Positions 23,992 through 63,760 of a stretch of 64,000 nucleotides of DNA are shown here, piece after piece. Source of the stretch: Eledone cirrhosa. Taxonomy: Eukaryota. The stretch covers positions 89,900,001 to 89,964,000 of the forward strand of contig OZ024746.1 of assembly GCA_964016885.1 (NCBI GenBank), written 5' to 3'. The notes under the pieces were generated by a model. It made no database searches, had not been told where the DNA came from, and saw only the letters and a list, made by a program, of their open reading frames with translations. How positions within the stretch are numbered: the stretch's first letter is position 1; every line of letters begins with the position of its first letter. The position numbers and the translations under genes are program-made.

Positions 23992-24049
<58 letters not shown>

Positions 24050-24053
<4 letters not shown>

Positions 24054-25580
24054 TTATGCTTACGGAGAGTCTAGTTGCCAATAAGAAACACACGCACCAG
24101 GTGCTTTCATTTCAATTTATTATAAAGTAAATTTATAAATTTCCGGTTGGTTGGTCGTTTCCACAACCAAACGATTGTTCATATATTGTCAAAGTTCTTT
24201 TGTCACACATTCTGTGACCTCTTCAGTGGCTGGGGATTCTTTTCTTTGTTTTTGAGGCGCTTCTTTGTTCTGTCTTATGCCATCTTGTTTTTGTTGTGTG
24301 CCTAGTTTGCGCTTGTGTTACATCCGGGTGTCTGTGTGTGTTTATATTTGTTTATTTATTTGTTTATTTACATGTTACTGGTTGGTTGTTTGTTCTATGT
24401 TTGTGTGTGTTTTCATTCCGTCCTTAATTGTAAGTTGTGATGTTGCTATTCTATTCATGTTTTCTATTTAATTTTGGTTGGAATTCATTTATGGTTATTG
24501 CCTTTGTGATTTGTCTAAAAATTGCGTCTTTTTTTGTGTAGATTCTATTTTTATTTCTATGTTCTCTAATTTACCCTTATGTTCTATTTTAGCATGTTGG
24601 TGGAGTACAGATGATTCTTTACTATCTTGAAGCTCTCGCCAGTGTTGATTTATCCGCTTCCCTATACTACGAGCTGTCTCACCTATGTACACTATATTCT
24701 TATCTCTACATTGTCCTTCAGTATATATTATGCTATATACTACATTTTTAGTTTTACAGTTAATATGGGGGCTTAGTTTAGAGATTATACGTTTCTCATC
24801 TATACAGGTAGGTCTTTGAAAAGGATGTGTATTGCTAATAAGTGTTTTTTATGGAGGTACCTGGTCTTTCTACTCTCTTAATATTGAGTTTATATATATC
24901 TAGGGCCCTATATAAATGTGTCAGCTAATTCACCTCTAAGGGTTGTATCGATGAACATTACACCCTGGTATTTATTGTTATCATACCATGAGTTTATTCT
25001 ATTAACCTTATTCCTAGTTCTTTCTATTCTATTACAACATTTGCTCCTATACATCGGTCAGGTCCCATTTGTATCATTATTTACCATGTTTTCCCATTTG
25101 GTTCTGGCTCCTCTATATACTCTGATTTTATCTCTCAGATTGTAACCAGAGAACTGCATACGGTGGATGAAGTGTTGTATGTGTCTCTCTAGTTCTTTGG
25201 GGTTGCACATGCGGGACACGTTTCTCATCACCCGTTCCAAATCCGCAATGAGTATGTTGATTTTGGTAGGGTCCGAAACAGCGGAGCTTCGGTGGATCAG
25301 ATATTTGTAAGTCATGGGTTTGGCATAATGGGAATGGAGGATTTGTTTTTTGTTATTAATGGAATCTAACCAGAGCTCTGTGTCTAGCACAGGGAATCGA
25401 TGGTTGGGGTGTTTTCTTGGGTAGTCTATAGTAGCTCTAATACTCTGGTGGATGGAGTTAGCTATTTGCTGGATGCTTTCCATGGTGTTTTTCTCTAATT
25501 ACAGACTGTTCTCTAGTGTTTTTTTTTCACTACGATGTTTATATCATCAACGTAGCGGGAGTACATTATCAGGTTTAAGA
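24050..25580 (-). mobile_element. 5'-truncated decayed PLE, sister subfamily (B) of the 44.7-52.8 kb element
   Basis: YSRYVDDINIV near 25540-25565, MESIQQIANSIHQS...PVLDTELW...RMQFSGY, YIGETARSIG. The 3' UTR matches 29092-29560 and 63465-63720. Confidence 0.92.
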
Positions 25581-28530: not shown

Positions 28531-29041
28531 ATATATATATATATATGACACTCTAAATATCACCCTCTGTATAATTGCATATACATTCCCAATAAATTCA
28601 ATGCTATAATTGGATGCCAATGCTAGAATGCTGACATGGTATCACATAATTTCCTAAACTAATTCTTCTAATAGTAATATTTAAATGATAATATTTGTGC
28701 TGTGCATTAAATTAAATAAATCCACTTTAGTAAACGTAAATATGGTACGTTTATAAAAATTCACACGCTGTGGTATCTTAATTGAAATATAAAATAGATT
28801 TGCTTTTATATTAATCGAAGATTTACACTGAAAAATGTATGCAGACAACTAAAAATTGTTAACTCATGCGACGATTTCCCTAATTCAAATACCGTTTTCG
28901 GGCTAATGGAACATCTTGAATTACCTGGATGAGTAGGTAATGTTATTTTAACAAGATTCGACTTCACACACTACAAATCATTTGTTGCGTGTACTCTAGA
29001 TACTCTGCTATTTGAAAACCCACATATTAGCTTTGTAAAAA

Positions 29042-29091
<50 letters not shown>

Positions 29092-29099
<8 letters not shown>

Positions 29100-30217
29100 A
29101 TACTTTGGGAGGGTGATGTTGCCAATATGAAACACACGCACCAGTTGCTTTCACTTCAATTTATTATGAATTAAATTTAGAAATTTCCGGTTGGTTGGTT
29201 GGTTCCACAACCAGACGATTGTTTGTATATTGTCAAAGTTCTTTCGTCACACATTATGTGACCTCTTCAGTGACTGGGGATTCTTTTTTTGTTTTTGTGC
29301 CTCTCCTTTGTTCTGTCCTACGTCATCTTGTTTTTGTGTGTGTTGTCTGCTTAGTTTGCGCATGTGTTACATCCGGGTGTCTGTGTGTGTTTATATTTGT
29401 TTATTTATTTGTTCATTTTCATGTTACTGGTTGGTTGTTTGTTCTATGTTTGTGTGTGTTTTCATTTTGTCTTTAATTGTAAGTTACGATGTTGCTGTTC
29501 CATTCATGTTTTCTATTTAATTTTGGTTGGAGTTCATTTATGTTTATTGCCCCTGTGATTTGGCGAGAGCTTCAAGATAGTAAAGAATCATCTGTCCTCT
29601 ACCAACATGCTAAAATAGAACATAAGGGTAAATTAAAGAACATAGAAATAAAAATAGAATCTACACACATAAAAGACGCAATGTTTAGACAAATCACAGA
29701 GGCAATAAACATAAATGACTCCAACCAAAATAAATAGAAAGCATGAATGGAATAGCAACATCACAACTTACAATTAAGGACAACATGAAAACACACACAA
29801 ACATAGAACAAACAACCAACCAGTAACATGGAAATAAAAAAATAAATAAACAAATATAAATACACACAGACACCCGGATGTAACACATGCGCAAACTAAG
29901 CACATAACACACACACAAACAAGATGGCGTAGGACAGAACAAAGGAGAGGCACACAAACAAAGAAAATAATCCCCATTTACTGAAGAGGTCACATAATGT
30001 GCCACGAAAGAACTTATGAACAATCGCCTGGTTGTGGAACCAAGCAACGAACCGGAAATTTATGAATTCCTAAATTTATAAATTTAATTTATAATAAATT
30101 GAAGTGAGACTGTTGGTGCGTGAGTTTCCTATTGGTAACATGACCCTCCCAAAGTATAAGAATATTGGTTTCAACACACGTTTTCATATACAGAATCTTC
30201 CTAAACAAATTCAGAAA

Positions 30218-30299: not shown

Positions 30300-30348
<49 letters not shown>

Positions 30349-31202
30349 GGAGGTGAGTTTTATTGTAGCCCAATAAAGCAATGCAGATATCGGATAAGTA
30401 GCACTCTACAGTTTGTCGGACTGGAGTATAAATAATATAAGATCGAAACATGGTTAAAAGAGTTCCAAGTATTTTATTATGCGCATTTCAAAAGCAAATA
30501 TCATCCTGGGATGATATCTGCGTTTTCATTATATAAAATAGGGATACATGATATGAAGCTTAAAAAACACTTGTGAATAGTGAAGTTTTAAATCATTATA
30601 TGAAAAATAATTTAAGATTGATGTATGAGTTTGGGAAAAAGTGAGAGGGGGGTGGGGGTGGAAAAGGTAAGGAAGAGGAGGAGATGAGTGTAAAGAATGG
30701 TGGGGGAGGAGTATAAGAAGGAAGAATGAGAGAGGAAGAGAGATGGGTGACAGTGAGAGAGAGATAGCCTTTACAACTGACAAAAAATATATATTGTCTC
30801 ACAGAGAGAAGTTAAAAAGCCGTTGGAACATAATAGATAATTTAAAAGAATTTGAAATAAAAAGTTAATGAGGTTTATGCATGAAGAGAAAAAAAAGGGA
30901 TTAAGATTAATATTAAATTGAGGTTTGTATATTGAAGGGTTAAATAATACGTGCGAGGAAAATACATTATTAATATGTATCATTAAATTAAAAATAATAA
31001 TGTTATTAAGGATATACTGTGAAAAGAAGTAAAAGAATGAATGAGTTGTGAATTTAGAGGAATAGGTTAGTGTTTAAGTTTGTTTTTATGTAATATAATA
31101 TGTGTGCGTAATATATGTACGTAAATAGTTTGTTTAAAAATGAGCGCAGAAAGCAAAGAAGAAAAGAATGTTTAAGGAAGTAAAATATCTAACATCATTA
31201 TT

Positions 31203-32616
31203 TTGAATTCTTTAAATCGGAAAATTCCTCAACTTCGCGGTGGAATTTATCGTGACGATGGACTTGTTACTATCTTAAATTGCAATTTAGTTAACCTTAA
31301 TAATATTAAGAACAATATACGTGGTCTCTTTAAGCAACATAACCTTAAAATCGAATTTGATAACGTCAAACTAGCTAACTTCTTGGATATATCCCTTAAT
31401 CTTGACACTGCCCTATATTACCCTTACCATAAAAACAATGAGAATCTAAATTATGTTAATTTTAAATCTAACCACCCAACTAACATTAAAAATGCTATAG
31501 TCAGTAATATTGGAAAAATAATATCCTCTAATAAAAATATATTTGGTGCTAACGCCAATTAATATGATAATGCGCTTTCTAAAGCCGGATATCCTGATAA
31601 AATTAAATACAGTAACAAAACCAATCCTAGAATGTCTTACAGTAAAATAATTAATTATGATCATTCCAATAACTTAAATATAAGGCCTAGATACAAAAAT
31701 ATAATCTGGTATAATGCTACTTTCTCTATTTCTATTAATAATAATTGTTTCTACGTTAGGCACAAGGCCAGCAATTACCCAATGTCTAAACTATTCTTTA
31801 GGGCCTTAGATAAATGCTTACCTCCCTCACATATCTATCGTAGAATCTTTAACAAACATACAATAACATTTTCCTATTCCACCTCCTCCAACATCTCTAA
31901 CATTATCTCTAAACACAAAAATAAAATATTAACTATTAAATCACATCCTTCCAACACTGAGCGTCATAATAATAACTGTAGTACTCCCGACGTCATTGTT
32001 AACTCTAGGCAGAGATTCTGCAAACTCAAATACGACGTCAAATGTAATTTCGTTGTATGTTCATAATACCAATCTAAATCAGGAAAATATTATTCCTATC
32101 GTAGATATCGTCTCCAATCCAATTCCTCCTATAAATAACACTAGATCACTTGTTAATAACTCTGTTAATCTCTCTAATCGCAATTGTAATTGCCCTGTTA
32201 GAACTAAATGTCCTCTCAGTAACCATTGTCTTGATTAAAACTTAGTCTATGAATGTAAGGTTATAACTGATACCAATTCCTTTACCTATTTCGGTTCCAC
32301 TTCCACCTCCTTCAAGGCTAGATTTTATAACCACAATTAGTCTTTTAGATACCAACTTAAAATAACTAACACGGCACTCTCAGAACTCATATGGTCCTTG
32401 AAAGACAAACAATATTAGCTATAACATCTCTTGGAGAAAAGTTTGTTCTGCCTCTCCCTACTTGAATGCCTCCCTATCCAGAACATGTAATCTTTGCCTA
32501 TTACTGAGAAAATTACCATTATATCTAATCTCAATTCTATAATAAATAGACGCACTGATTTATTTTCTCTCTGCTTGCATAAATTCCACAGAACATTCCA
32601 CAAAGTATACACCTAA
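31203..32616 (+). pseudogene. Hydra-type PLE RT-GIY-YIG pseudogene (5'-truncated, with stops and frameshifts)
   Basis: GGIYRDDGL, NFLDI, SNHP, IIWYN, IFNKHTITFSYS, CNC...CPL..HC, LVYECKV, YFGST...FKARFYNH, IWSLK, CNLC...EK...NRR..L...CLH. The CxC linker before a C-terminal EN fits the Hydra clade. Confidence 0.82.
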
Positions 32617-33773
32617 TATCTAATACCTTACTAGTTTAACATCTTTTTTCTCAAAGGATTATATATCTTTTAAAAATATACCCATTGTTCTACCTTATTT
32701 CAATATTATTTATTATATATTATATAATACAAGTTACTCATTCTATATCATTCCTCTTTATCAGTTTCCTTTCTTCCTCTTTTCATTCTAATTTATAACC
32801 TCTAATCAGAAATTGTTCTTCCTAACTACTTCCCAATTCTTATTATTACTCACCACAACATTATCCAATCTTCCATCGTTCTTCATTCATTGGCCATAAC
32901 AATTTTTTTTTTTTTTAAAAATACATTATAGTATGATCTTTAATAGTCCTTCGTAAACATAAACATTTTTTTTTTTATGTTAGATTTTTCTTCCTTAAAT
33001 TCCTTATTTCTTCCTTTCATGCTCGTTTGACTTTTACATATTACAATACATAAAAACAAACTTAAACCCTAACTAATTCAGTTAATATATTATATTATTA
33101 CCATTAGAAAATATTTCGTAAACATGTATATTTTTTTATATTAGATATTTTTGTTCCTCAAACATTCTTTTCTTCTTTGCTTTCTGCGCTCATTTTTAAA
33201 CAAACTATTTACGTACATATATTAAGCAAACATATTACATTGCATAAAAACAAACTTAAACACTAACTAATTCCTCTAAATTCACAACTCATTCATTCTT
33301 TTACTTCTTTTCACATTATATCTTTAATAACATTAATATTTTTATTTTAATAATGCATATTAATAATTTATTTTCCTCGCACGTATTATTAAACCCTTCA
33401 CTATACAAACCTTAATTTAATATTATTCTTAATCCCTTTTTTTTCTCTTCATGCATAAACCTCATTAACTTTTAATTTCAAATTCTTTTAAATTATCTAT
33501 TATCTTCCAACGGCTTTTCAACTTCTCTCGGTGAGACAATATATATATTGTTCTCAGTTGTAAAGGCTATCTCTCTCTCTCTATCACCCATCTTTCCTCC
33601 TCTCTCATCCTTCCTTCTTATACTCCTCCCCCACCATTCTTTACTCTCATCCCCTCCTCTCCCCCCCGTCACTTTTTCCCAATATCACACATCAATCTTA
33701 AATTATTTTTCATTGTTGATTTAAAACTTCACTATTTACAAGTGTTTTTTAAGCTTCATATCATGTATCCCTA

Positions 33774-33840
33774 TTTTATCTGATGAAAACGCAGATATCA
33801 TCCCATGATGATATTTGTTTTTGAAATGCGCTTAATAAAA
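33774..33840 (+). ncRNA. Minimal hammerhead ribozyme motif in Hydra pLTR (one stem III mismatch)
   Basis: ttttat CTGATGA-stem II-GAAA tgcgct TA ataaaa. The inverted copy at ~30471-30540 has a mutated core (ataatga). Confidence 0.72.
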
Positions 33841-35989
33841 TACTTGCAACTCTATTAACCATCCTTTGATCTTATATTATTTATACTCCAGTCCTACAAA
33901 CTGTAGAGCGCTACTTATCCGATATTTGCATTGCTTTATTGTGCTACAATAAAATTCACCTTCTACATTATATATATATATATATATAGAACATATGTCA
34001 CCTCACTCCTTTTTCTCTATCTGGCTTTGTATATATATACATATATAGGGAGAGAAAGAGAGGGGGATAGAGAAGGGGAGGAGAGAAAAGGAGATAGAGG
34101 GATAGCAAGAGAGAAAGAGAGCAAGTGGGAGAGATAAATATTATCCACTGTTACATCTTTTATACACATAAGCATAATTATGTTTTTATTTATGGTCCAT
34201 CTCAACGTTCCGTTTTTCTTAATCTTATCGCCTTGTTTACTTTTTAGTTAGAGCTGCCTGATATCCAAATCATTATAGTACTGATAAGCGTTGCGGATAG
34301 ATTCACTAGTTAATTCATGTGTACATATAATTCCTTTGATTATTTTTAAATTTATGTAGATTTTACTGAAAGGTATATAGCAACATCAAAGCAATCTATT
34401 TTTTGCCTTAACGCATTATTTTAAATCAAAACTCATTCATTCGTAATACAATTTCCGAAATATTTTTAGCGGTCTGGTGAAGCAGACTTATACAGAAAAT
34501 TTGTTGCACCCTCCTTCTCTTTCTGTACAATTCTCTTACTAACTCTACTTCTCTTCCCCACTGTGTGTATATTGCAATTCCTATTCAGATATAACTCATG
34601 TGTTTATTTATTTATGTACTATCCTCTTATCTCAATATATGAAGAGTATGTTTACTTCCTCTCGCGTGCGTGGCTTACTGTGTAGTTTTATGGTTTCATT
34701 AATTTAAACCGGATAATCCATGGTCGACAAATATCAGTAATGCACACGTATATAAATCTCAAAACAAATCTGATACGTTTACATTTAAATTCCCTGCAAT
34801 ACTTGGATTCATTTATCTTTGGGCTGTTAATTATATGTCATAAACCTAATTTACAAACCCCATTTTAAATATTGACCCTTGTATGACAGTCATCTCTAGA
34901 CCATAAAATCTATAGCTTTCAAAGACTAGTGGAACTCTTTTTTTCTATAACCTAATATTATATTTCTGTTGAGCAATGTTAAGGATAATCAATATTACTA
35001 ACACCAGGGCTTAGGTGATGCAATTAAAACATACATAATTGATTAAAGCATTTCAAATTCTTTCTTCCCATAATATTATTCTCAATAACTATATTTGTGT
35101 TGAGATACACTTTCTGAAATATTTGTCGTGAATTTTTAACATTGATCATGTATGTTCTTCTTACTTACTGATTTAAGGAAGCAAGTGATTTGTTGATCTG
35201 AAACTCCGTTGTCGACATCATGTTGGCAAAATCCAACCAGTATAAGGTGGTGTAACTTCTGAAGACGTTTTTGCTAGTATATGAGAAATCAGTAATTGTG
35301 GATAGTTATAAATGTCATATTAAATACTACCATTACCGTTTGTCATGTTTATATTCATTTTCTCACAATGTGTCGAATATATACCATTTACATCCTCTGT
35401 AAGTGATTTCTTGACGTGCCAATATATAATGATGTAAGACGCAATATGAAATCTAGTGGAAACCTGAAACACATTTTATTGAATTATTGTATTCCATAGT
35501 GATTTTGGAATAGAAATGCCCACACACTTGATTTCCGTGAAATATATTTTCTATCAATAATATCTATGTATGGAAGAATGTTACTGAAAGATGTCGTATA
35601 ATGTAAATTTTGATATCTCATATTTACATTCTATGCAATCCAATTGAGCTACACGTGTGATAGAGAGAAGGGATGTATGTGCGAATTCATATCGCGTGGT
35701 GATACAAGTCAGCATTTAAAGATAACTAAATACGTAGAAAATGGTAGGTTTTTTTCACTCACAAACAGCCGAATAAGGAAAGAAATAGGTAGAAATTAAG
35801 AGGCAAATGTGAATCTTCATCGAAATTGATTTTTGTTTGTTTCTCTATGCAACCATGTTTGTTATCAACATTGGTATTCATATTTGTTTTTAATTTGTAA
35901 TCTATATGTATAAAAGCAGGATTATATATATATGGAACGATCGACTTTCGTCAACTTGGACCGAGGAAACAATGTTTCCATTGGTATTT

Positions 35990-44470: not shown

Positions 44471-44602
<132 letters not shown>

Positions 44603-44692
44603 GGAAAAAGATGAGTATTGATGTAGTACAATACTCATCTTTTTCCATTTATCTGAGGGTTCTAAACCGCATTATCAGGTAAAATTTCTTTC

Positions 44693-44737
<45 letters not shown>

Positions 44738-44999
44738 CGGCGATGAATTAGTTTTGCGAGGTTTTTTATATGAAATCGTGTGTCGAAACAGATATTGTTA
44801 TATTTGGGGAGGGTCATATTTGCGTAATATTGCCAGAATTAATAACAGAACACACTCACTGTTTGGTTGGTTTTCGCTTCTCGCTGTCTTTTATATATAT
44901 ATATCTGCGATCTAACTTACTCGGTCCTCAATGTTGCCATTGACTGACCGGCGGTCAAAAATAATACAGATACAATATAGACAAACACATATATATATA

Positions 45000-45046
45000 G
45001 TTTACATAAATCTTTCGTTGCACATCTGCAACATCGTCAGTGGTGT
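45000..45046 (-). ncRNA. Hammerhead-like motif in PLE 3' UTR/pLTR (mirror of 52510-52556)
   Basis: CTGACGA t gttgca-gatg-tgcaac GAAA gattt a. Confidence 0.6.
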
Positions 45047-45319
45047 TATATTCATTGTTCCTCCTGTTGTGTTGTATGTCTACGCCATTTTTGTTTGTGT
45101 TCAGTCTGTCTATATATTTATTTATTTATTTATTTGCTTGTTTGTTTATCTTATTTTATTTTGTCTTCTTTGCGCATGCGTTTGCGTGTGTGTATAGTGT
45201 TATGTGTGATGTGTGACTAGTGTGTATAGTGTTGTGTCTGCTGGGTGACTAGTGTGTGTTTATGTGCTTGTGTATGTATTTATTTATCTTATTTTATTTA
45301 ATTTAATTTACTTATTTAT

Positions 45320-48300
45320 TTATACTTCTCTTAGGTCAGTGTTGTTTGTTTGGGTGTTGTTGTTGTTCCACTCATTCTTTCTGTTTAGCTTTGGTCTTCT
45401 AATTTCTATTTCACTGGCCTCTCTGATTTGCCTATCTGCTGGGTCATTCCTATGTTTAGATATTATTCTAATTTCTATGTTGTCTATGTTACCGTCATGA
45501 TGTTGTCTAGCATGTTCGTATAGTACTGACCCGTTTTTTCGTCCTTTTAGTTCCCCCCAGTGTTGGTCTATCCTTTCACCTATGCTACGAGCTGTCTCAC
45601 CTATGTATGTTGTTGTCGTGTTTCTGCAAGTACCCTCTGTACATCTTATGCTATAGACTACGTTTCTAGTTTTACAGTTTATCCGGGGGTTCACCTTACA
45701 TATGATACATTTCCTATTGGTACAGTGGGTTTTCTTAAAAGGGTAGGTTTTGCTGATCAGGGATTTTATGGTGGTTCCTGGCTTTTCTACCACCTTTATT
45801 TTTAAGTGGGTCTTTCTCAGGGCCTTTCTACACTGGTTAGCTAATTTCCCTCCAGGGGTGGCGTCCACAAACATGACACTCTGATATCTCTGGTTGTCGT
45901 ACCATGATGTGGCCTTCCCTATCTTATGTCTAGCCCTATCTAAGCTATTCCATGATTTGCTCCTGTATAGTGGGCAAATTCCTTTCATGTCCAGTTCTAT
46001 GAGGGTCTTATACTTTTCCATGGCTCCTTCGTATACTCTGACTCTGTCTCTTTGGTTGTAGCCAGAGAACTGCATGCGGTTGATGAAGTGTTGGATGTGT
46101 CCTTCCATTTCTGTTGGGTCGCACATGCTGGACACATTCTTCATCACTCGTACCAAATCTGCGATCAGAATATTAAACTTAGCACTACTGGACATTGCTG
46201 AGTTTTTGAGTATCAGGTATTTGGAGGCCATGGGTTTAGCATAGTGTGAGTGGAGAATTTGGGCTCTCTCGTCTATAGTGTTAATCCAGAGTTCTGTGTC
46301 TAATACAGGTAGTCTATTGTTAGGGTGTTTGGAAGGGAAGTCTATAGTTACAGTTATACTCTGGTGTATGGAATTAGCTATCTGCTGGACGCTTTCCATC
46401 GTGCTACGTTCTAAATCAAACTTGTTAGTGCTCTCTAGTGGGGGTGTTCTTATAACTATATTGATATCGTCTACATAACGAGAGTACATGATGAGGTCTA
46501 TGGAGCTTTCATTAAGGAGATCTTTAAGTCTCCTTTCCCACCATACCATGAAAAGGTTGGCAACATCGCCAGCTATGCTGACGCCGATGGCTGCTCCCTC
46601 ATTTTGGGTGTAGATTTTCTCATTGAACTTAAATATGTGGCCCTTTAGGGTAGTTTTGATACTAGCCCCTATTGCATGTGCGACCATTTTTCTTACCTGA
46701 TCAGTGTTTTGGGGGGTCCGTATAGCTTTGGTCCACCCAATCCACCTTCCTATGGGAGTCTTTTTAGCCATTGAGGTTATGGTGGGGGGTCTACCTCTTA
46801 TAGGTCTACTAGGGCAGAAACATCTAAGGTCATGGCTGTCTAGGTAGTCAGTGTCGTAGGTAAGTCTAAGTAGGAGGCCCAGTTCGTCTGTGTCGACGTC
46901 GCAGAACTCCACCTCACTCTCAATGATCATCTCCACACATCTTTTCACAGCAAAATCAATGTTAATGGATGGGTACAGTGACACCACATCCATGCTGCCT
47001 ATTATGCAGTTGGATAGGCTCCTGTTTTTGTTGCACTCACTGATTCTGCTGAGGAGGTCCTCTGTACTTTCACATACATCTGGGGACATCTTGATTATGG
47101 GGCGTATAACCATTGAGAGGAAGTAGGAGATCCTGTAGTTGCTAGCTATATTAGCTCCGCATACAGGTCTTGTTGGTGGTCCTATTGTCGGGTCGTCGAC
47201 TGTCTTGTGGTCTTTGCGGAGCCCATACAAGGGTGGTATGCCATTGTTAGACGCCTGGAAGTTGTTGGCAGTGCGTCTGCTTGGCTTTAGGATGTCAGTC
47301 CACATCATCATGTGAGCGTTGAGGATTTTTTCTCTCCCATCGTGTGTTAGTTGTGCAACTTCGCTCGTGTTGGTGATGTGGGGTTGCATTGCCTCGATGT
47401 AGTTCGGCATGCTATCTATTGACATCCTACCAGACTTATCTGTGGGTAGACACACTACCTCACCATCCCTTGTGCGCTGCTTGAGGCTAACCAAGCCTTC
47501 TACAGGTTTTATCCCAAGTTGTTGGGCCTCTGGTCTGCTCTGTCTCATAGTGTACCTGTCTACTACTTGTCTAATCTTATTTCTAGCTATGGTGAACTGT
47601 GCCTCCGTCTCGTCATCTATTTGTTGTGGTATGCAAACTCTTTTATTAAAGGGTAACCTCGTAGGATAGATATTACCCATCTTATATGTTTTGTCAGCTG
47701 GGTTGAAAAATAGTTTCTCTAAGGGGTTGTCGTTATTTCTATCGTCATAGTTGTGTGTGTTGCTATTATTGTTATCATGGTGGTTGTTGTTGTTTCTATC
47801 CTTAGCATTAATATTATTATTGTTATGATTGCTAGATGTATTGTTGTTTACTTCACCGTTATTGTTGTTGTTGTTACTGCTATTTCTACCATTGTGGTTG
47901 TTACTATTATTATGTTTCTTGTTTTTGTTGATGTTGCTACATGTACTATTTCCATTATTACCACTGTGGTTATTGTTGTTGTTGTTGTTCGTATTGTTAC
48001 CGTTATTACTACTGTGGTCACTGTTGTTGTGTCTGTGGTTAACGTTTCTATTATTATTATTATTGTGGTTGTTGTTGTTCTGTCTATCGCTAGTATTATT
48101 ACCATTATCACTATTTCTCACTTTCCTGCCATTGTTATGGTTATGGCTGTTATTTCTATACCCAGAGTTATTGTTTATATTACTACTACCGTTATTATTG
48201 TTGTTGTTGTTTACCTTTGCATTCCAACGTATTTTTGTGAAACACTTTTCCAGCTCCGTTTTGCATTCCATAGGATTAATCTTTTTGTAGATGGCAAATT

Positions 48301-48887
48301 TTGGTGGTAACTTTAGGATTTGTTGTTCTTGTTCACTGATTAAAGTGTTCCCATAGATATTTACTGTGTGGTCATTGGTAAATTCTTCCGGTAGTTTTAC
48401 ATCACTCATACGGATGTTGTCGATGTTATCTGGGTATTTTTGAGAATATTCGATTTTCCTTTCTTGTAGTTTTTTCTTATTCATCCATTCTAATTTCTTC
48501 TTGAAATGCCTACAGCATTCGTTTTGAGCATATTTCGTTTCGCGTCGGATGACGCTCATGAAGTCATCTCTCTCGTTTGCTGTGATGAGATTTCGGATTT
48601 CCTTACCGTTGATGCGTTTTTGTCTGTAGAGTGCGTTGACTTTTGTGTATGTTGTTCTTTTCATATTAACTGTTATTGTGTGTTTTAGCCGTTCAGCTTG
48701 TGTTTTGTTCAATAATAAATTATTTACTTGTTTTGATATGTTTGTTGTGTATGTTTTGGAGGAAACACAGTGTTTTAAGAAGCGGATTTGTTCTGTTGTT
48801 ATTGTAGTTTTTATATAACAGAAAACAGTGTCTTTCAATAACCTTTCAGCTTGGCACAAGCTAATGCCATAGCGGCGATGAATTAGT
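45320..48887 (-). CDS. PLE polyprotein: RT plus C-terminal GIY-YIG endonuclease, uninterrupted but lacking its first ~22 codons
   Basis: PTDKSG, LYGLRKDHK, RPVC, SMDVVSLYPSI, GAAIG, YSRYVDD, LPVLD, CTNRKCIIC linker, NVVYSIRC...YIGETAR...R...H...H...H, RQIREASEI, LNRKNEW. The track start at 48859 is a TTG (Leu), and the frame stays open to ~48887. Confidence 0.95.
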
Positions 48888-48891
48888 TAAT

Positions 48892-51800
48892 ATGAAAAGA
48901 ACAACATACACAAAAGTCAACGCACTCTACAGACAAAAACGCATCAACGGTAAGGAAATCCGAAATCTCATCACAGCAAACGAGAGAGATGACTTCATGA
49001 GCGTCATCCGACGCGAAACGAAATATGCTCAAAACGAATGCTGTAGGCATTTCAAGAAGAAATTAGAATGGATGAATAAGAAAAAACTACAAGAAAGGAA
49101 AATCGAATATTCTCAAAAATACCCAGATAACATCGACAACATCCGTATGAGTGATGTAAAACTACCGGAAGAATTTACCAATGACCACACAGTAAATATC
49201 TATGGGAACACTTTAATCAGTGAACAAGAACAACAAATCCTAAAGTTACCACCAAAATTTGCCATCTACAAAAAGATTAATCCTATGGAATGCAAAACGG
49301 AGCTGGAAAAGTGTTTCACAAAAATACGTTGGAATGCAAAGGTAAACAACAACAACAATAATAACGGTAGTAGTAATATAAACAATAACTCTGGGTATAG
49401 AAATAACAGCCATAACCATAACAATGGCAGGAAAGTGAGAAATAGTGATAATGGTAATAATACTAGCGATAGACAGAACAACAACAACCACAATAATAAT
49501 AATAATAGAAACGTTAACCACAGACACAACAACAGTGACCACAGTAGTAATAACGGTAACAATACGAACAACAACAACAACAATAACCACAGTGGTAATA
49601 ATGGAAATAGTACATGTAGCAACATCAACAAAAACAAGAAACATAATAATAGTAACAACCACAATGGTAGAAATAGCAGTAACAACAACAACAATAACGG
49701 TGAAGTAAACAACAATACATCTAGCAATCATAACAATAATAATATTAATGCTAAGGATAGAAACAACAACAACCACCATGATAACAATAATAGCAACACA
49801 CACAACTATGACGATAGAAATAACGACAACCCCTTAGAGAAACTATTTTTCAACCCAGCTGACAAAACATATAAGATGGGTAATATCTATCCTACGAGGT
49901 TACCCTTTAATAAAAGAGTTTGCATACCACAACAAATAGATGACGAGACGGAGGCACAGTTCACCATAGCTAGAAATAAGATTAGACAAGTAGTAGACAG
50001 GTACACTATGAGACAGAGCAGACCAGAGGCCCAACAACTTGGGATAAAACCTGTAGAAGGCTTGGTTAGCCTCAAGCAGCGCACAAGGGATGGTGAGGTA
50101 GTGTGTCTACCCACAGATAAGTCTGGTAGGATGTCAATAGATAGCATGCCGAACTACATCGAGGCAATGCAACCCCACATCACCAACACGAGCGAAGTTG
50201 CACAACTAACACACGATGGGAGAGAAAAAATCCTCAACGCTCACATGATGATGTGGACTGACATCCTAAAGCCAAGCAGACGCACTGCCAACAACTTCCA
50301 GGCGTCTAACAATGGCATACCACCCTTGTATGGGCTCCGCAAAGACCACAAGACAGTCGACGACCCGACAATAGGACCACCAACAAGACCTGTATGCGGA
50401 GCTAATATAGCTAGCAACTACAGGATCTCCTACTTCCTCTCAATGGTTATACGCCCCATAATCAAGATGTCCCCAGATGTATGTGAAAGTACAGAGGACC
50501 TCCTCAGCAGAATCAGTGAGTGCAACAAAAACAGGAGCCTATCCAACTGCATAATAGGCAGCATGGATGTGGTGTCACTGTACCCATCCATTAACATTGA
50601 TTTTGCTGTGAAAAGATGTGTGGAGATGATCATTGAGAGTGAGGTGGAGTTCTGCGACGTCGACACAGACGAACTGGGCCTCCTACTTAGACTTACCTAC
50701 GACACTGACTACCTAGACAGCCATGACCTTAGATGTTTCTGCCCTAGTAGACCTATAAGAGGTAGACCCCCCACCATAACCTCAATGGCTAAAAAGACTC
50801 CCATAGGAAGGTGGATTGGGTGGACCAAAGCTATACGGACCCCCCAAAACACTGATCAGGTAAGAAAAATGGTCGCACATGCAATAGGGGCTAGTATCAA
50901 AACTACCCTAAAGGGCCACATATTTAAGTTCAATGAGAAAATCTACACCCAAAATGAGGGAGCAGCCATCGGCGTCAGCATAGCTGGCGATGTTGCCAAC
51001 CTTTTCATGGTATGGTGGGAAAGGAGACTTAAAGATCTCCTTAATGAAAGCTCCATAGACCTCATCATGTACTCTCGTTATGTAGACGATATCAATATAG
51101 TTATAAGAACACCCCCACTAGAGAGCACTAACAAGTTTGATTTAGAACGTAGCACGATGGAAAGCGTCCAGCAGATAGCTAATTCCATACACCAGAGTAT
51201 AACTGTAACTATAGACTTCCCTTCCAAACACCCTAACAATAGACTACCTGTATTAGACACAGAACTCTGGATTAACACTATAGACGAGAGAGCCCAAATT
51301 CTCCACTCACACTATGCTAAACCCATGGCCTCCAAATACCTGATACTCAAAAACTCAGCAATGTCCAGTAGTGCTAAGTTTAATATTCTGATCGCAGATT
51401 TGGTACGAGTGATGAAGAATGTGTCCAGCATGTGCGACCCAACAGAAATGGAAGGACACATCCAACACTTCATCAACCGCATGCAGTTCTCTGGCTACAA
51501 CCAAAGAGACAGAGTCAGAGTATACGAAGGAGCCATGGAAAAGTATAAGACCCTCATAGAACTGGACATGAAAGGAATTTGCCCACTATACAGGAGCAAA
51601 TCATGGAATAGCTTAGATAGGGCTAGACATAAGATAGGGAAGGCCACATCATGGTACGACAACCAGAGATATCAGAGTGTCATGTTTGTGGACGCCACCC
51701 CTGGAGGGAAATTAGCTAACCAGTGTAGAAAGGCCCTGAGAAAGACCCACTTAAAAATAAAGGTGGTAGAAAAGCCAGGAACCACCATAAAATCCCTGAT

Positions 51801-52236
51801 CAGCAAAACCTACCCTTTTAAGAAAACCCACTGTACCAATAGGAAATGTATCATATGTAAGGTGAACCCCCGGATAAACTGTAAAACTAGAAACGTAGTC
51901 TATAGCATAAGATGTACAGAGGGTACTTGCAGAAACACGACAACAACATACATAGGTGAGACAGCTCGTAGCATAGGTGAAAGGATAGACCAACACTGGG
52001 GGGAACTAAAAGGACGAAAAAACGGGTCAGTACTATACGAACATGCTAGACAACATCATGACGGTAACATAGACAACATAGAAATTAGAATAATATCTAA
52101 ACATAGGAATGACCCAGCAGATAGGCAAATCAGAGAGGCCAGTGAAATAGAAATTAGAAGACCAAAGCTAAACAGAAAGAATGAGTGGAACAACAACAAC
52201 ACCCAAACAAACAACACTGACCTAAGAGAAGTATAA
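48892..52236 (+). CDS. PLE polyprotein, second (more 5'-truncated) identical copy, 1114 aa
   Basis: Identical translation to the minus copy from MKRTT onward. YVDD at 51079-51090, VVY at 51895-51903, YIG at 51949-51957. Confidence 0.95.
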   Translation: MKRTTYTKVNALYRQKRINGKEIRNLITANERDDFMSVIRRETKYAQNECCRHFKKKLEWMNKKKLQERKIEYSQKYPDNIDNIRMSDVKLPEEFTNDHTVNIYGNTLISEQEQQILKLPPKFAIYKKINPMECKTELEKCFTKIRWNAKVNNNNNNNGSSNINNNSGYRNNSHNHNNGRKVRNSDNGNNTSDRQNNNNHNNNNNRNVNHRHNNSDHSSNNGNNTNNNNNNNHSGNNGNSTCSNINKNKKHNNSNNHNGRNSSNNNNNNGEVNNNTSSNHNNNNINAKDRNNNNHHDNNNSNTHNYDDRNNDNPLEKLFFNPADKTYKMGNIYPTRLPFNKRVCIPQQIDDETEAQFTIARNKIRQVVDRYTMRQSRPEAQQLGIKPVEGLVSLKQRTRDGEVVCLPTDKSGRMSIDSMPNYIEAMQPHITNTSEVAQLTHDGREKILNAHMMMWTDILKPSRRTANNFQASNNGIPPLYGLRKDHKTVDDPTIGPPTRPVCGANIASNYRISYFLSMVIRPIIKMSPDVCESTEDLLSRISECNKNRSLSNCIIGSMDVVSLYPSINIDFAVKRCVEMIIESEVEFCDVDTDELGLLLRLTYDTDYLDSHDLRCFCPSRPIRGRPPTITSMAKKTPIGRWIGWTKAIRTPQNTDQVRKMVAHAIGASIKTTLKGHIFKFNEKIYTQNEGAAIGVSIAGDVANLFMVWWERRLKDLLNESSIDLIMYSRYVDDINIVIRTPPLESTNKFDLERSTMESVQQIANSIHQSITVTIDFPSKHPNNRLPVLDTELWINTIDERAQILHSHYAKPMASKYLILKNSAMSSSAKFNILIADLVRVMKNVSSMCDPTEMEGHIQHFINRMQFSGYNQRDRVRVYEGAMEKYKTLIELDMKGICPLYRSKSWNSLDRARHKIGKATSWYDNQRYQSVMFVDATPGGKLANQCRKALRKTHLKIKVVEKPGTTIKSLISKTYPFKKTHCTNRKCIICKVNPRINCKTRNVVYSIRCTEGTCRNTTTTYIGETARSIGERIDQHWGELKGRKNGSVLYEHARQHHDGNIDNIEIRIISKHRNDPADRQIREASEIEIRRPKLNRKNEWNNNNTQTNNTDLREV

Positions 52237-52509
52237 ATAAATAAGTAAATTAAATTAAATAAAATAAGATAAATAAATACATACACAAGCACATAAACAC
52301 ACACTAGTCACCCAGCAGACACAACACTATACACACTAGTCACACATCACACATAACACTATACACACACGCAAACGCATGCGCAAAGAAGACAAAATAA
52401 AATAAGATAAACAAACAAGCAAATAAATAAATAAATAAATATATAGACAGACTGAACACAAACAAAAATGGCGTAGACATACAACACAACAGGAGGAACA
52501 ATGAATATA

Positions 52510-52556
52510 ACACCACTGACGATGTTGCAGATGTGCAACGAAAGATTTATGTAAAC
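52510..52556 (+). ncRNA. Hammerhead-like motif in PLE 3' UTR/pLTR
   Basis: CTGACGA at 52516-52522, one extra nt, 6-bp stem II, GAAA at 52540-52543, very short stem III. Stem I is weak. Confidence 0.6.
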
Positions 52557-52660
52557 TATATATATATGTGTTTGTCTATATTGTATCTGTATTATTTTTG
52601 ACCGCCGGTCAGTCAATGGCAACATTGAGGACCGAGTAAGTTAGATCGCAGATATATATA

Positions 52661-52741
52661 TATAAAAGACAGCGAGAAGCGAAAACCAACCAAACAGTGA
52701 GTGTGTTCTGTTATTAATTCTGGCAATATTACGCAAATATG
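52661..52741 (+). promoter_or_regulatory. Candidate pLTR promoter/5' UTR: TATAAAAG upstream of the element's true ATG (52739)
   Basis: TATAAAAG at 52661-52668, Inr-like acagt ~30 nt downstream, then an ATG conserved in subfamily B. Sequence inference only. Confidence 0.35.
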
Positions 52742-52756
52742 ACCCTCCCCAAATAT

Positions 52757-52828
<72 letters not shown>

Positions 52829-62854: not shown

Positions 62855-63370
62855 AGGATGATGTGGTTGAGAAGAAGAGCAAAGCTTGGATGGCGTTCTA
62901 CAGTTTGAGATCTGTGTGGAAGTCAGACCATCGTAAAGAACTGATGATCCGTCTCTTCGTTGCTACAGTGTTGGTCTGAGAATTGCAAACTGACCAAGAA
63001 ACCCACTCAGATGGTGGATGAGTGTTACATGAGAATGATGGGTTACATGATGATGCTCTGAACATTAATAAGTATACTCTGAGGATGAAGAACTCAGATA
63101 TGTGCCGGAGCCTCCGAAAGGTCAGCTTGAAAGTGACACAGAGGAGATTGAGGTTAGCTGGACATGTGCACCGACATTCAGAGTTGACACTGCACTCGGT
63201 ACTCATGTGGGAGACCCTAACCGGACACACTAGAAGAGGGAGACCGAGCTTGACATATGTTGATGCCCTATGGAGAGACACATGTCTCTTTGAGACGCAG
63301 GACATGGCAGGGACGATGAAGGTCAAAACAACTGGAAGAACTCGTCCATGGATCTCGGGAATTTTACTCG
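62855..63370 (+). mobile_element. RTE-type LINE 3' fragment (family of 21296-21785)
   Basis: KAWMAFYSLRSVWKS, RRLRLAGHVHRH, RRGRPSLTYVD. Confidence 0.85.
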
Positions 63371-63372
63371 TC

Positions 63373-63760
<388 letters not shown>

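Follow-up and report, generated by a model that had tools for sequence, protein, structure and literature searches.

The reverse transcriptases (RTs) of Penelope-like elements (PLEs) are sister to telomerase. In endonuclease-bearing (EN+) PLEs of the Neptune/Nematis type, one open reading frame (ORF) encodes both an RT and a GIY-YIG endonuclease at its C terminus, separated by a CX2-5CxxC linker, a hammerhead motif lies in the pseudo-long terminal repeat (pLTR), and the copies are 5'-truncated and partly tandem, with an inverted truncated copy, a tail of 30-40 nt at one end, and (TA)n targets (PMC8557442). The Penelope of Adineta vaga, an element of low copy number with Asn-rich inserts, has a pLTR that holds the first 12 codons of the ORF (22 with the tail) and also occurs inverted; circularly permuted copies and 5' joining through microhomology are mentioned, and self-priming on an antisense template is proposed (PMC3846280). 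In the Poseidon element PAc of Anolis carolinensis, reverse transcription starts at two adjacent internal sites in the ORF start, which define the tail, and both DNA strands of AT-rich targets are cut and extended, the template being assumed to be a multi-copy linear mRNA (PMC11167929). The non-LTR retrozymes of animals, which have been linked to PLEs (bioRxiv 10.64898/2026.07.22.740005), have type I hammerheads, tandem copies, and a proposed rolling reverse transcription by PLE enzymes (PMC7229834; bioRxiv 10.64898/2026.07.22.740005). A circular PLE template was proposed in outline in 2014 (PMC4209133), and the origin of longer-than-unit and inverted PLE copies is described as open (PMC8557442; PMC11167929). 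The present analysis concerns a PLE of Eledone cirrhosa and its sister copies, starting from one insertion in a 64,000-nt stretch of contig OZ024746.1 (hereafter the window; assembly GCA_964016885.1, positions 89,900,001 to 89,964,000). Family-wide counts suggest, with a probability that we put at about 0.6, that a single RNA of unit length, probably circularized following hammerhead cutting, serves as the reverse-transcription template for both arms of such an insertion.

The window locus and its place among PLEs

The insertion is a head-to-head, two-armed, young EN+ PLE in a (TA)n tract, which flanks it on the left (44697-44736) and on the right (52761-52819) and into which the 3' ends of both arms run. 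The left arm (44734-48888, minus strand) measures 4,155 nt, i.e. one unit of 4,135 nt plus 20 nt, and the right arm (48885-52764, plus strand) is an inverted, 5'-truncated copy of 3,880 nt that is 100% identical to it, the two overlapping head-to-head in 4 nt of microhomology (48885-48888). An assembly artefact is an unlikely source of this identity, as the arm ends differ and the sister loci retain locus-specific variants; no single read or contig spanning the locus was found in the four contig sets compared, nor did these sets yield anything on expression or circles. The first-pass annotation had described the left arm alone, as a circularly permuted unit with a redundant 20-mer at its ends. 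This 20-mer is exact and in register: at the 3' end of the arm (44734-44753, minus strand) it closes the unit, and at the 5' end (48869-48888, minus strand) it begins a second round; it has two occurrences in the window, cannot be extended in either direction, and blends with its outer bases into the (TA)n flank. The spacing between the two gives the unit length of 4,135 bp, numbered here from u1 (window 48868) in descending direction to u4135, with the 20-mer at u4116-4135 and the ATG at u4052. The 5' end of the left arm is not free but is the inversion junction with the second arm.

The start codon said to be stranded at the 3' end (ATG 44817-44815, minus strand) opens 28 codons in the 3' pLTR and tail (44734-44817, minus strand), which read MTLPKY...HRRY and run on across the 20-mer, still in frame, into an open frame of 1,188 codons (45320-48886, minus strand) that lacks the first 22 codons; the ORF start is partly repeated at 52739-52764 (plus strand). 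The 3.0-Gb genome contains 252 occurrences of a 24-mer that spans the head-to-tail junction, and 0 of its reversed control, so that the junction is not a product of chance. Sister loci were taken from the first 100 of these 252 junctions (on C1-C3, with one on C4), giving 88 merged loci with 92 junction-bearing segments, 26 of which were dropped (below 97% identity, i.e. older, rearranged, incomplete, or gap-adjacent) to leave 66 arms. The reconstruction of an ORF of about 1,210 aa is borne out by 43 copies, at 35 of the 88 loci, in which it runs unbroken from ATG to stop over at least 1,200 aa (mostly 1,210), and its N-terminus is similar in two relatives (P0016 and P0022). A further sample, of 3' ends, comprised 60 regions and excluded long arms, and hence was not used for long-range rates; nor were genome-wide 24-mer counts used for rates, which fall steadily from 3' to 5' (5,179; 2,385; 1,668; 1,080; 312; 252) but mix subfamilies.

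By its sequence features, the element is a canonical EN+ PLE of the Neptune/Nematis type. The ORF encodes in order an N-terminal domain, an Asn-rich stretch, the RT, a CX4CxxC linker, and the C-terminal GIY-YIG endonuclease; the RT motifs DKSG and YVDD (46466-46477) are in frame, as in the single-ORF RTs of PLEs, and the endonuclease has, between GIY and YIG, the two cysteines of the CCHH type (VVYSIRC-TEGT-C...YIG). In 11 aligned proteins the three cysteines of the linker, which is the one expected of Neptune/Nematis, are invariant, as are Y86, C90, Y102, and G104 of the GIY-YIG domain. There are 281 protein relatives at E<=1e-10, the best named being an RT-domain protein and the closest named protein a hypothetical RT of Octopus vulgaris (68%), and PF01541 is present in one relative; the ORF product itself matched no Pfam family, and a PDB sequence search with it returned weak RT matches only (best E 0.044). 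The partial-tandem pLTR overlapping the ORF start, already recognized in the first-pass annotation along with the PLE identity, agrees with the layouts in PMC8557442 and PMC3846280, and the inverted 5'-truncated partner and the optional tail are likewise those of EN+ PLEs; the tail, at 43-58 nt compared with the 30-40 nt of Neptune/Nematis PLEs, shows no difference in kind. Naiad/Chlamys is ruled out by the C-terminal endonuclease and the presence of a hammerhead motif, and the Hydra clade, in which CCHH is absent and the linker is CxCX5C, by the CCHH and CX4CxxC of the element. A non-LTR retrozyme, i.e. a small, non-coding tandem unit, is ruled out by the 4,135-nt unit with its 1,210-aa ORF. 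Retrozyme circles have been shown experimentally (PMC7229834), whereas the Eledone element is 4.1 kb long, coding, and autonomous, and its circle is one that we infer.

Taken alone, the window locus is ordinary and its PLE layout textbook. The left arm has no upstream ATG, and the hammerhead of the right arm (52514-52551, plus strand) lies on the opposite strand from that of the left, so that the locus does not hold two motifs in tandem; with one hammerhead per strand and no upstream ATG, the left arm is not expected to act as a source element. The useful part of the analysis is the counts across the family.

Variant sharing between rounds, arms and loci

The variant counts rest on 26 informative sites, 8 low-complexity sites having been excluded. 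Successive rounds of one arm differ in 0 of 788 informative-site comparisons (76 pairs) and opposite arms in 2 of 717 (92 pairs), compared with 22% for different loci. Full matches per locus were found for rounds in 41 of 41 cases (9.3 expected from random partners) and for arms in 30 of 32 (6.4 expected), with 30 haplotypes present among 67 loci, and a replication with the opposite arms of new loci gave 18 matches out of 18 (3.3 expected) with 0 of 213 sites differing. Of the variants private to one locus, 23 of 89 were common to all rounds and 24 of 97 to both arms, the window locus also having one in both its left and right arms; the remaining private variants are confined to one round or arm, which is what later mutation or assembly error would produce. 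The two round-specific variants that recur at a second locus lie there in the opposite round, and thus no difference between units is inherited. This identity across rounds and arms implies that each insertion passes through a single-unit bottleneck, which is one of the two grounds on which a circle is favored, the other being that neither a stop nor a scar is found at the predicted ribozyme cut.

In the scenario of PMC11167929, which has to be weighed against these numbers, read-through of a multi-unit source array yields a linear transcript that stays uncut and, primed internally at two sites, serves as the template. Uncut RNA is the main in vitro substrate in that study and arrays of two to three units do exist (7 of 66 arms), and yet the units of an array should drift apart and pass on their differences in order, of which none was seen in the 788 comparisons. 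Arrays would, moreover, presumably shorten in each generation with no means of rebuilding, while arms of three rounds occur at a steady stop rate, and inversion junctions are not inherited between distant loci, the neighbors L180 and L181 being a pair that shares one. The scenario would also account for a scar-free predicted cut; altogether we regard it as unlikely, though the strongest of the alternatives.

Identical variants could also be explained with no common RNA, if self-priming (through fold-back, perhaps with an antisense template, PMC3846280) or a duplication or conversion of the DNA after insertion had produced the second arm and the extra rounds, and near-perfect palindromic junctions, seen in 4 of 26 cases, would fit such an origin. 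In many short insertions (e.g. L182 and L201), however, neither arm is contained in the other, so that neither can be a copy of the other; older loci hold many arm-specific variants and yet match at lineage sites; and the 3' ends are fixed and the 5' ends ragged in the sense polarity, as for priming on a sense RNA. This origin is accordingly given very little weight. In that, the Eledone element, which is present in thousands of copies, differs from the proposal for the low-copy Penelope of Adineta vaga, as its counts favor sense-RNA priming from both ends.

In the haplotype table (L031-L130), several copies, e.g. the locus at C1:173.84 Mb, resemble mosaics of two main lineages, which suggests recombination between sources.

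Priming sites, stops and the predicted ribozyme cut

The 3' ends of the arms form two classes inside the ORF start, a short one at u4070-4083 (+19 to +32 from the ATG) and a long one at u4120-4135 (+68 to +84), and the main 3' ends all fall on TA/AT, matching the (TA)n target, in which they differ from the PAc starts at +111-118 that show no target homology (PMC11167929). An inverted partner is present in 51 of 66 arms, mostly joined via overlaps of 1-7 nt, and short ends are paired with long ends in 87 of 89 insertions (62 of 63 for loci with long arms, 25 of 26 for loci of the 3'-end sample; p about 1e-23). The window locus obeys this rule, its left arm ending in the long (“tailed”) class at +84 and its right arm in the short class at +26. 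The internal priming surmised in the first-pass annotation is thus upheld, with the support of PMC11167929. One insertion, L204, lies in an (ACT)n-type repeat rather than in (TA)n, and its long end is shifted by one base, matching the target; in the neighbors L180 and L181 (C1:36.13-36.15 Mb), next to the common inversion junction, one 3' end differs (u4122 vs u4077).

The 5' ends behave differently from what had been anticipated. In the first-pass annotation, the stop 20 nt after one full round was read as a sign of a circular template, and an enrichment of 5' ends at unit length plus a few nt was to follow. No such enrichment exists: 0 of 66 arms end within 50 nt upstream of the junction and 5 of 66 within 100 nt, and the 5' ends are instead spread exponentially (median about 1 kb, p=0.55), with arms of up to three rounds, the longest reaching 8.8 kb further, and 7 of 66 crossing a second junction. 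An overshoot of at most 30 nt past the 3' end position of the arm itself was found in 3 of 66 arms, compared with about 1 expected at the mean rate. The 20 nt of the window are the shortest overshoot past the junction seen; they do not form a class and have no special meaning, and a circle, although still the best reading, is inferred from other evidence. The alternative offered at the time, a linear transcript with its 5' end some 110 nt further on, fares no better, since 47 of the 66 arms carry on into the upstream ORF. The position at which the left arm of the window stops is also a frequent early stop: 6 of 28 unpaired short arms bear an inverted micro-arm of 14-23 nt of this sequence.

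Stops cluster just short of one round and not just beyond it. In a check with a second marker on C1-C2, just 52 of 92 passes at u349 reach the junction, and 33 of 77 clean arms stop before it, in u1-349. Ten of these 33 lie within the 24 nt of u149-172 (48697-48720, minus strand, in the window), where the stop rate is 5.6 per kb, compared with 0.5-0.7 beyond the junction (scan p=0.006). Other clusters are found at u4050-4070 (6 of 35 long-end partners) and at u3815-3845, inside the hammerhead (8 of 49). Two copies of the motif CAAGCTGA lie within the ORF start (48846-48853 and 48693-48700, i.e. u16 and u169), and sister arms stop at both sites (u15-18 and u161-172); the motif is a candidate protein-binding or pairing element.

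The hammerhead motif of the left arm (45005-45042, minus strand, of which 45040-45007 are u3829-3862), the presence of which had also been claimed in the first-pass annotation, is of the minimal type I, with its core CUGACGA at 45040, a bulge, a 6-bp stem II, GAAA, a near-palindromic, self-complementary helix III, and a 2-bp stem I; it lies 190 nt before the ATG, and the cut is predicted after 45007. The motif was identified by inspecting core matches, and self-cleavage is a prediction from these; Rfam returned no hammerhead, only chance matches driven by microsatellites, and a scan demanding a 3-bp stem I gave no match. The pairing of helix III is kept in older copies through a G-U to G-C change. 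Between the predicted cut and the priming sites 3' of it there are 215-273 nt, so that the longer arms would have to cross the cut if the template were a cut monomer.

Such a crossing is conceivable on a linear monomer, whether hammerhead-cut or terminally redundant, if the RT, on reaching the 5' end, jumps precisely to the 3' end of that molecule or of a sister one. This would yield an equal single-unit bottleneck, and same-strand jumps are seen elsewhere in a few arms. Against this, 166 of 188 anchored passes over the predicted cut are young and without a new indel there, and 5' ends do not pile up around it (u3846-3902), where 0 of 63 partner arms and one or two arms of the 3'-end sample stop; also, the putative start region (see below) holds no stop among the 41 partners of long arms. 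A precise jump is therefore considered improbable, more so than the multi-unit transcript.

It has to be noted that several observations speak against a single unit-length circle. The predicted ribozyme has a stem I of only 2 bp, and its region folds no better than shuffled sequences (z -1.19). In one lineage an inherited 9-nt duplication spans the cut, in about 50 of the 188 passes, and a jump could have made it. The anole PAc uses uncut RNA in vitro, its ribozyme mutants insert, and no reads end at the cut (PMC11167929). At the C1:181.30 Mb locus (L050-L052, C1:181298074-181312950), three rounds of one arm, but not the opposite arm, carry a 118-nt deletion; the rounds are consecutive, the deletion lies between direct repeats, and private variants are common to both arms. 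This one locus argues for two templates or a later DNA rearrangement, its mixed pattern suiting an origin at the DNA level and also a linear template with unequal units. Shared variants, in addition, would also follow from a single expressed source locus per cell or from arm-to-arm conversion. The stop zone could reflect RNA structure or a purging of complete copies, and the share of second-round stops within it (2 of 9) is not significantly different (p=0.30). Finally, 4 of 26 short insertions, compared with 0.23 expected, have the stops of both arms at an identical base, three of them at u3750-3764, and stops at u3736-3784, a post hoc zone of low-complexity sequence, are found in 11 of 53 arms at risk as opposed to 0 of 41 partners of long arms. 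These symmetric short insertions suggest that some templates are linear, as a multi-unit transcript would be.

The 118-nt deletion is not an intron, as it lies between direct repeats and has no GT-AG. The insertions with same-base stops are L187, L219, L229, and L221; an A-run variant is common to the first three, whose stops lie at u3750-3764, which is a candidate transcription start or a mark of a candidate non-autonomous sub-lineage.

Surroundings of the insertion and the proposed mechanism

Just to the left of the insertion, between TA tracts, is a hairpin (44597-44652) whose arms measure about 23 bp and whose loop has 8 nt; the contigs of one sequencing run (X1) have loose ends there, so that a repeat is possible. 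Older related PLE fragments at 24000-25580, 29040-30170, and 30320-33990 form decayed inverted arms that are 85-90% identical; protein identity is 61% and 54% to the RT and endonuclease region at 24498-25578 and 52% at 29561-29704. These are earlier two-armed insertions of other families. Decayed non-LTR fragments of the long interspersed nuclear element type lie at 1671-2888 and 63022-63501, with an RVT_1 match (E 1.4e-10) at 2376-2885.

In the model that we propose for the Eledone element, the GIY-YIG domain would break the (TA)n target, and a few A/T bases would allow each 3'-OH end to prime at one or the other internal site. Each reverse transcription may then proceed 5'-ward round the template until it stalls, following which the two cDNA ends would be joined via microhomology. 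At the window locus, the arm from the long site would have made one round plus 20 nt, and the arm from the short site would have stopped 255 nt short of one round. The stop zone before the junction is as would be expected if the RT returned to a protein-bound region 3' of the priming sites, and such a protein-binding region is known in PAc (PMC11167929).

A fuller version of this model is put forward more tentatively, and falls somewhat short of an even chance: an autonomous PLE may move as a 4.1-kb, ribozyme-made, protein-coding RNA circle, on which, at two fixed sites, an asymmetric enzyme dimer would prime the two ends of a single (TA)n break, roll round, and often stall at its own footprint just short of one round. 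In the literature covered (main texts, with few subscription papers), neither a direct test of a circle nor any count of how far rounds or arms share a template was found; the supplements of PMC11167929 and PMC8557442, which lie outside that search, may bear on the pairing of ends.

If the fuller version is true, one circle mechanism would account for the pLTR and the tail as well as for the stranded start codon and the inverted arm. The Eledone family, with more than 5,000 exact 3'-end matches, dozens of intact ORFs, mapped priming sites and stop zones, and a predicted cut, is one in which a circle, a linear multimer, and a jump make differing predictions that are cheap to examine. A natural rolling-circle reverse transcription with two-ended priming would matter for the biology of retroelements.

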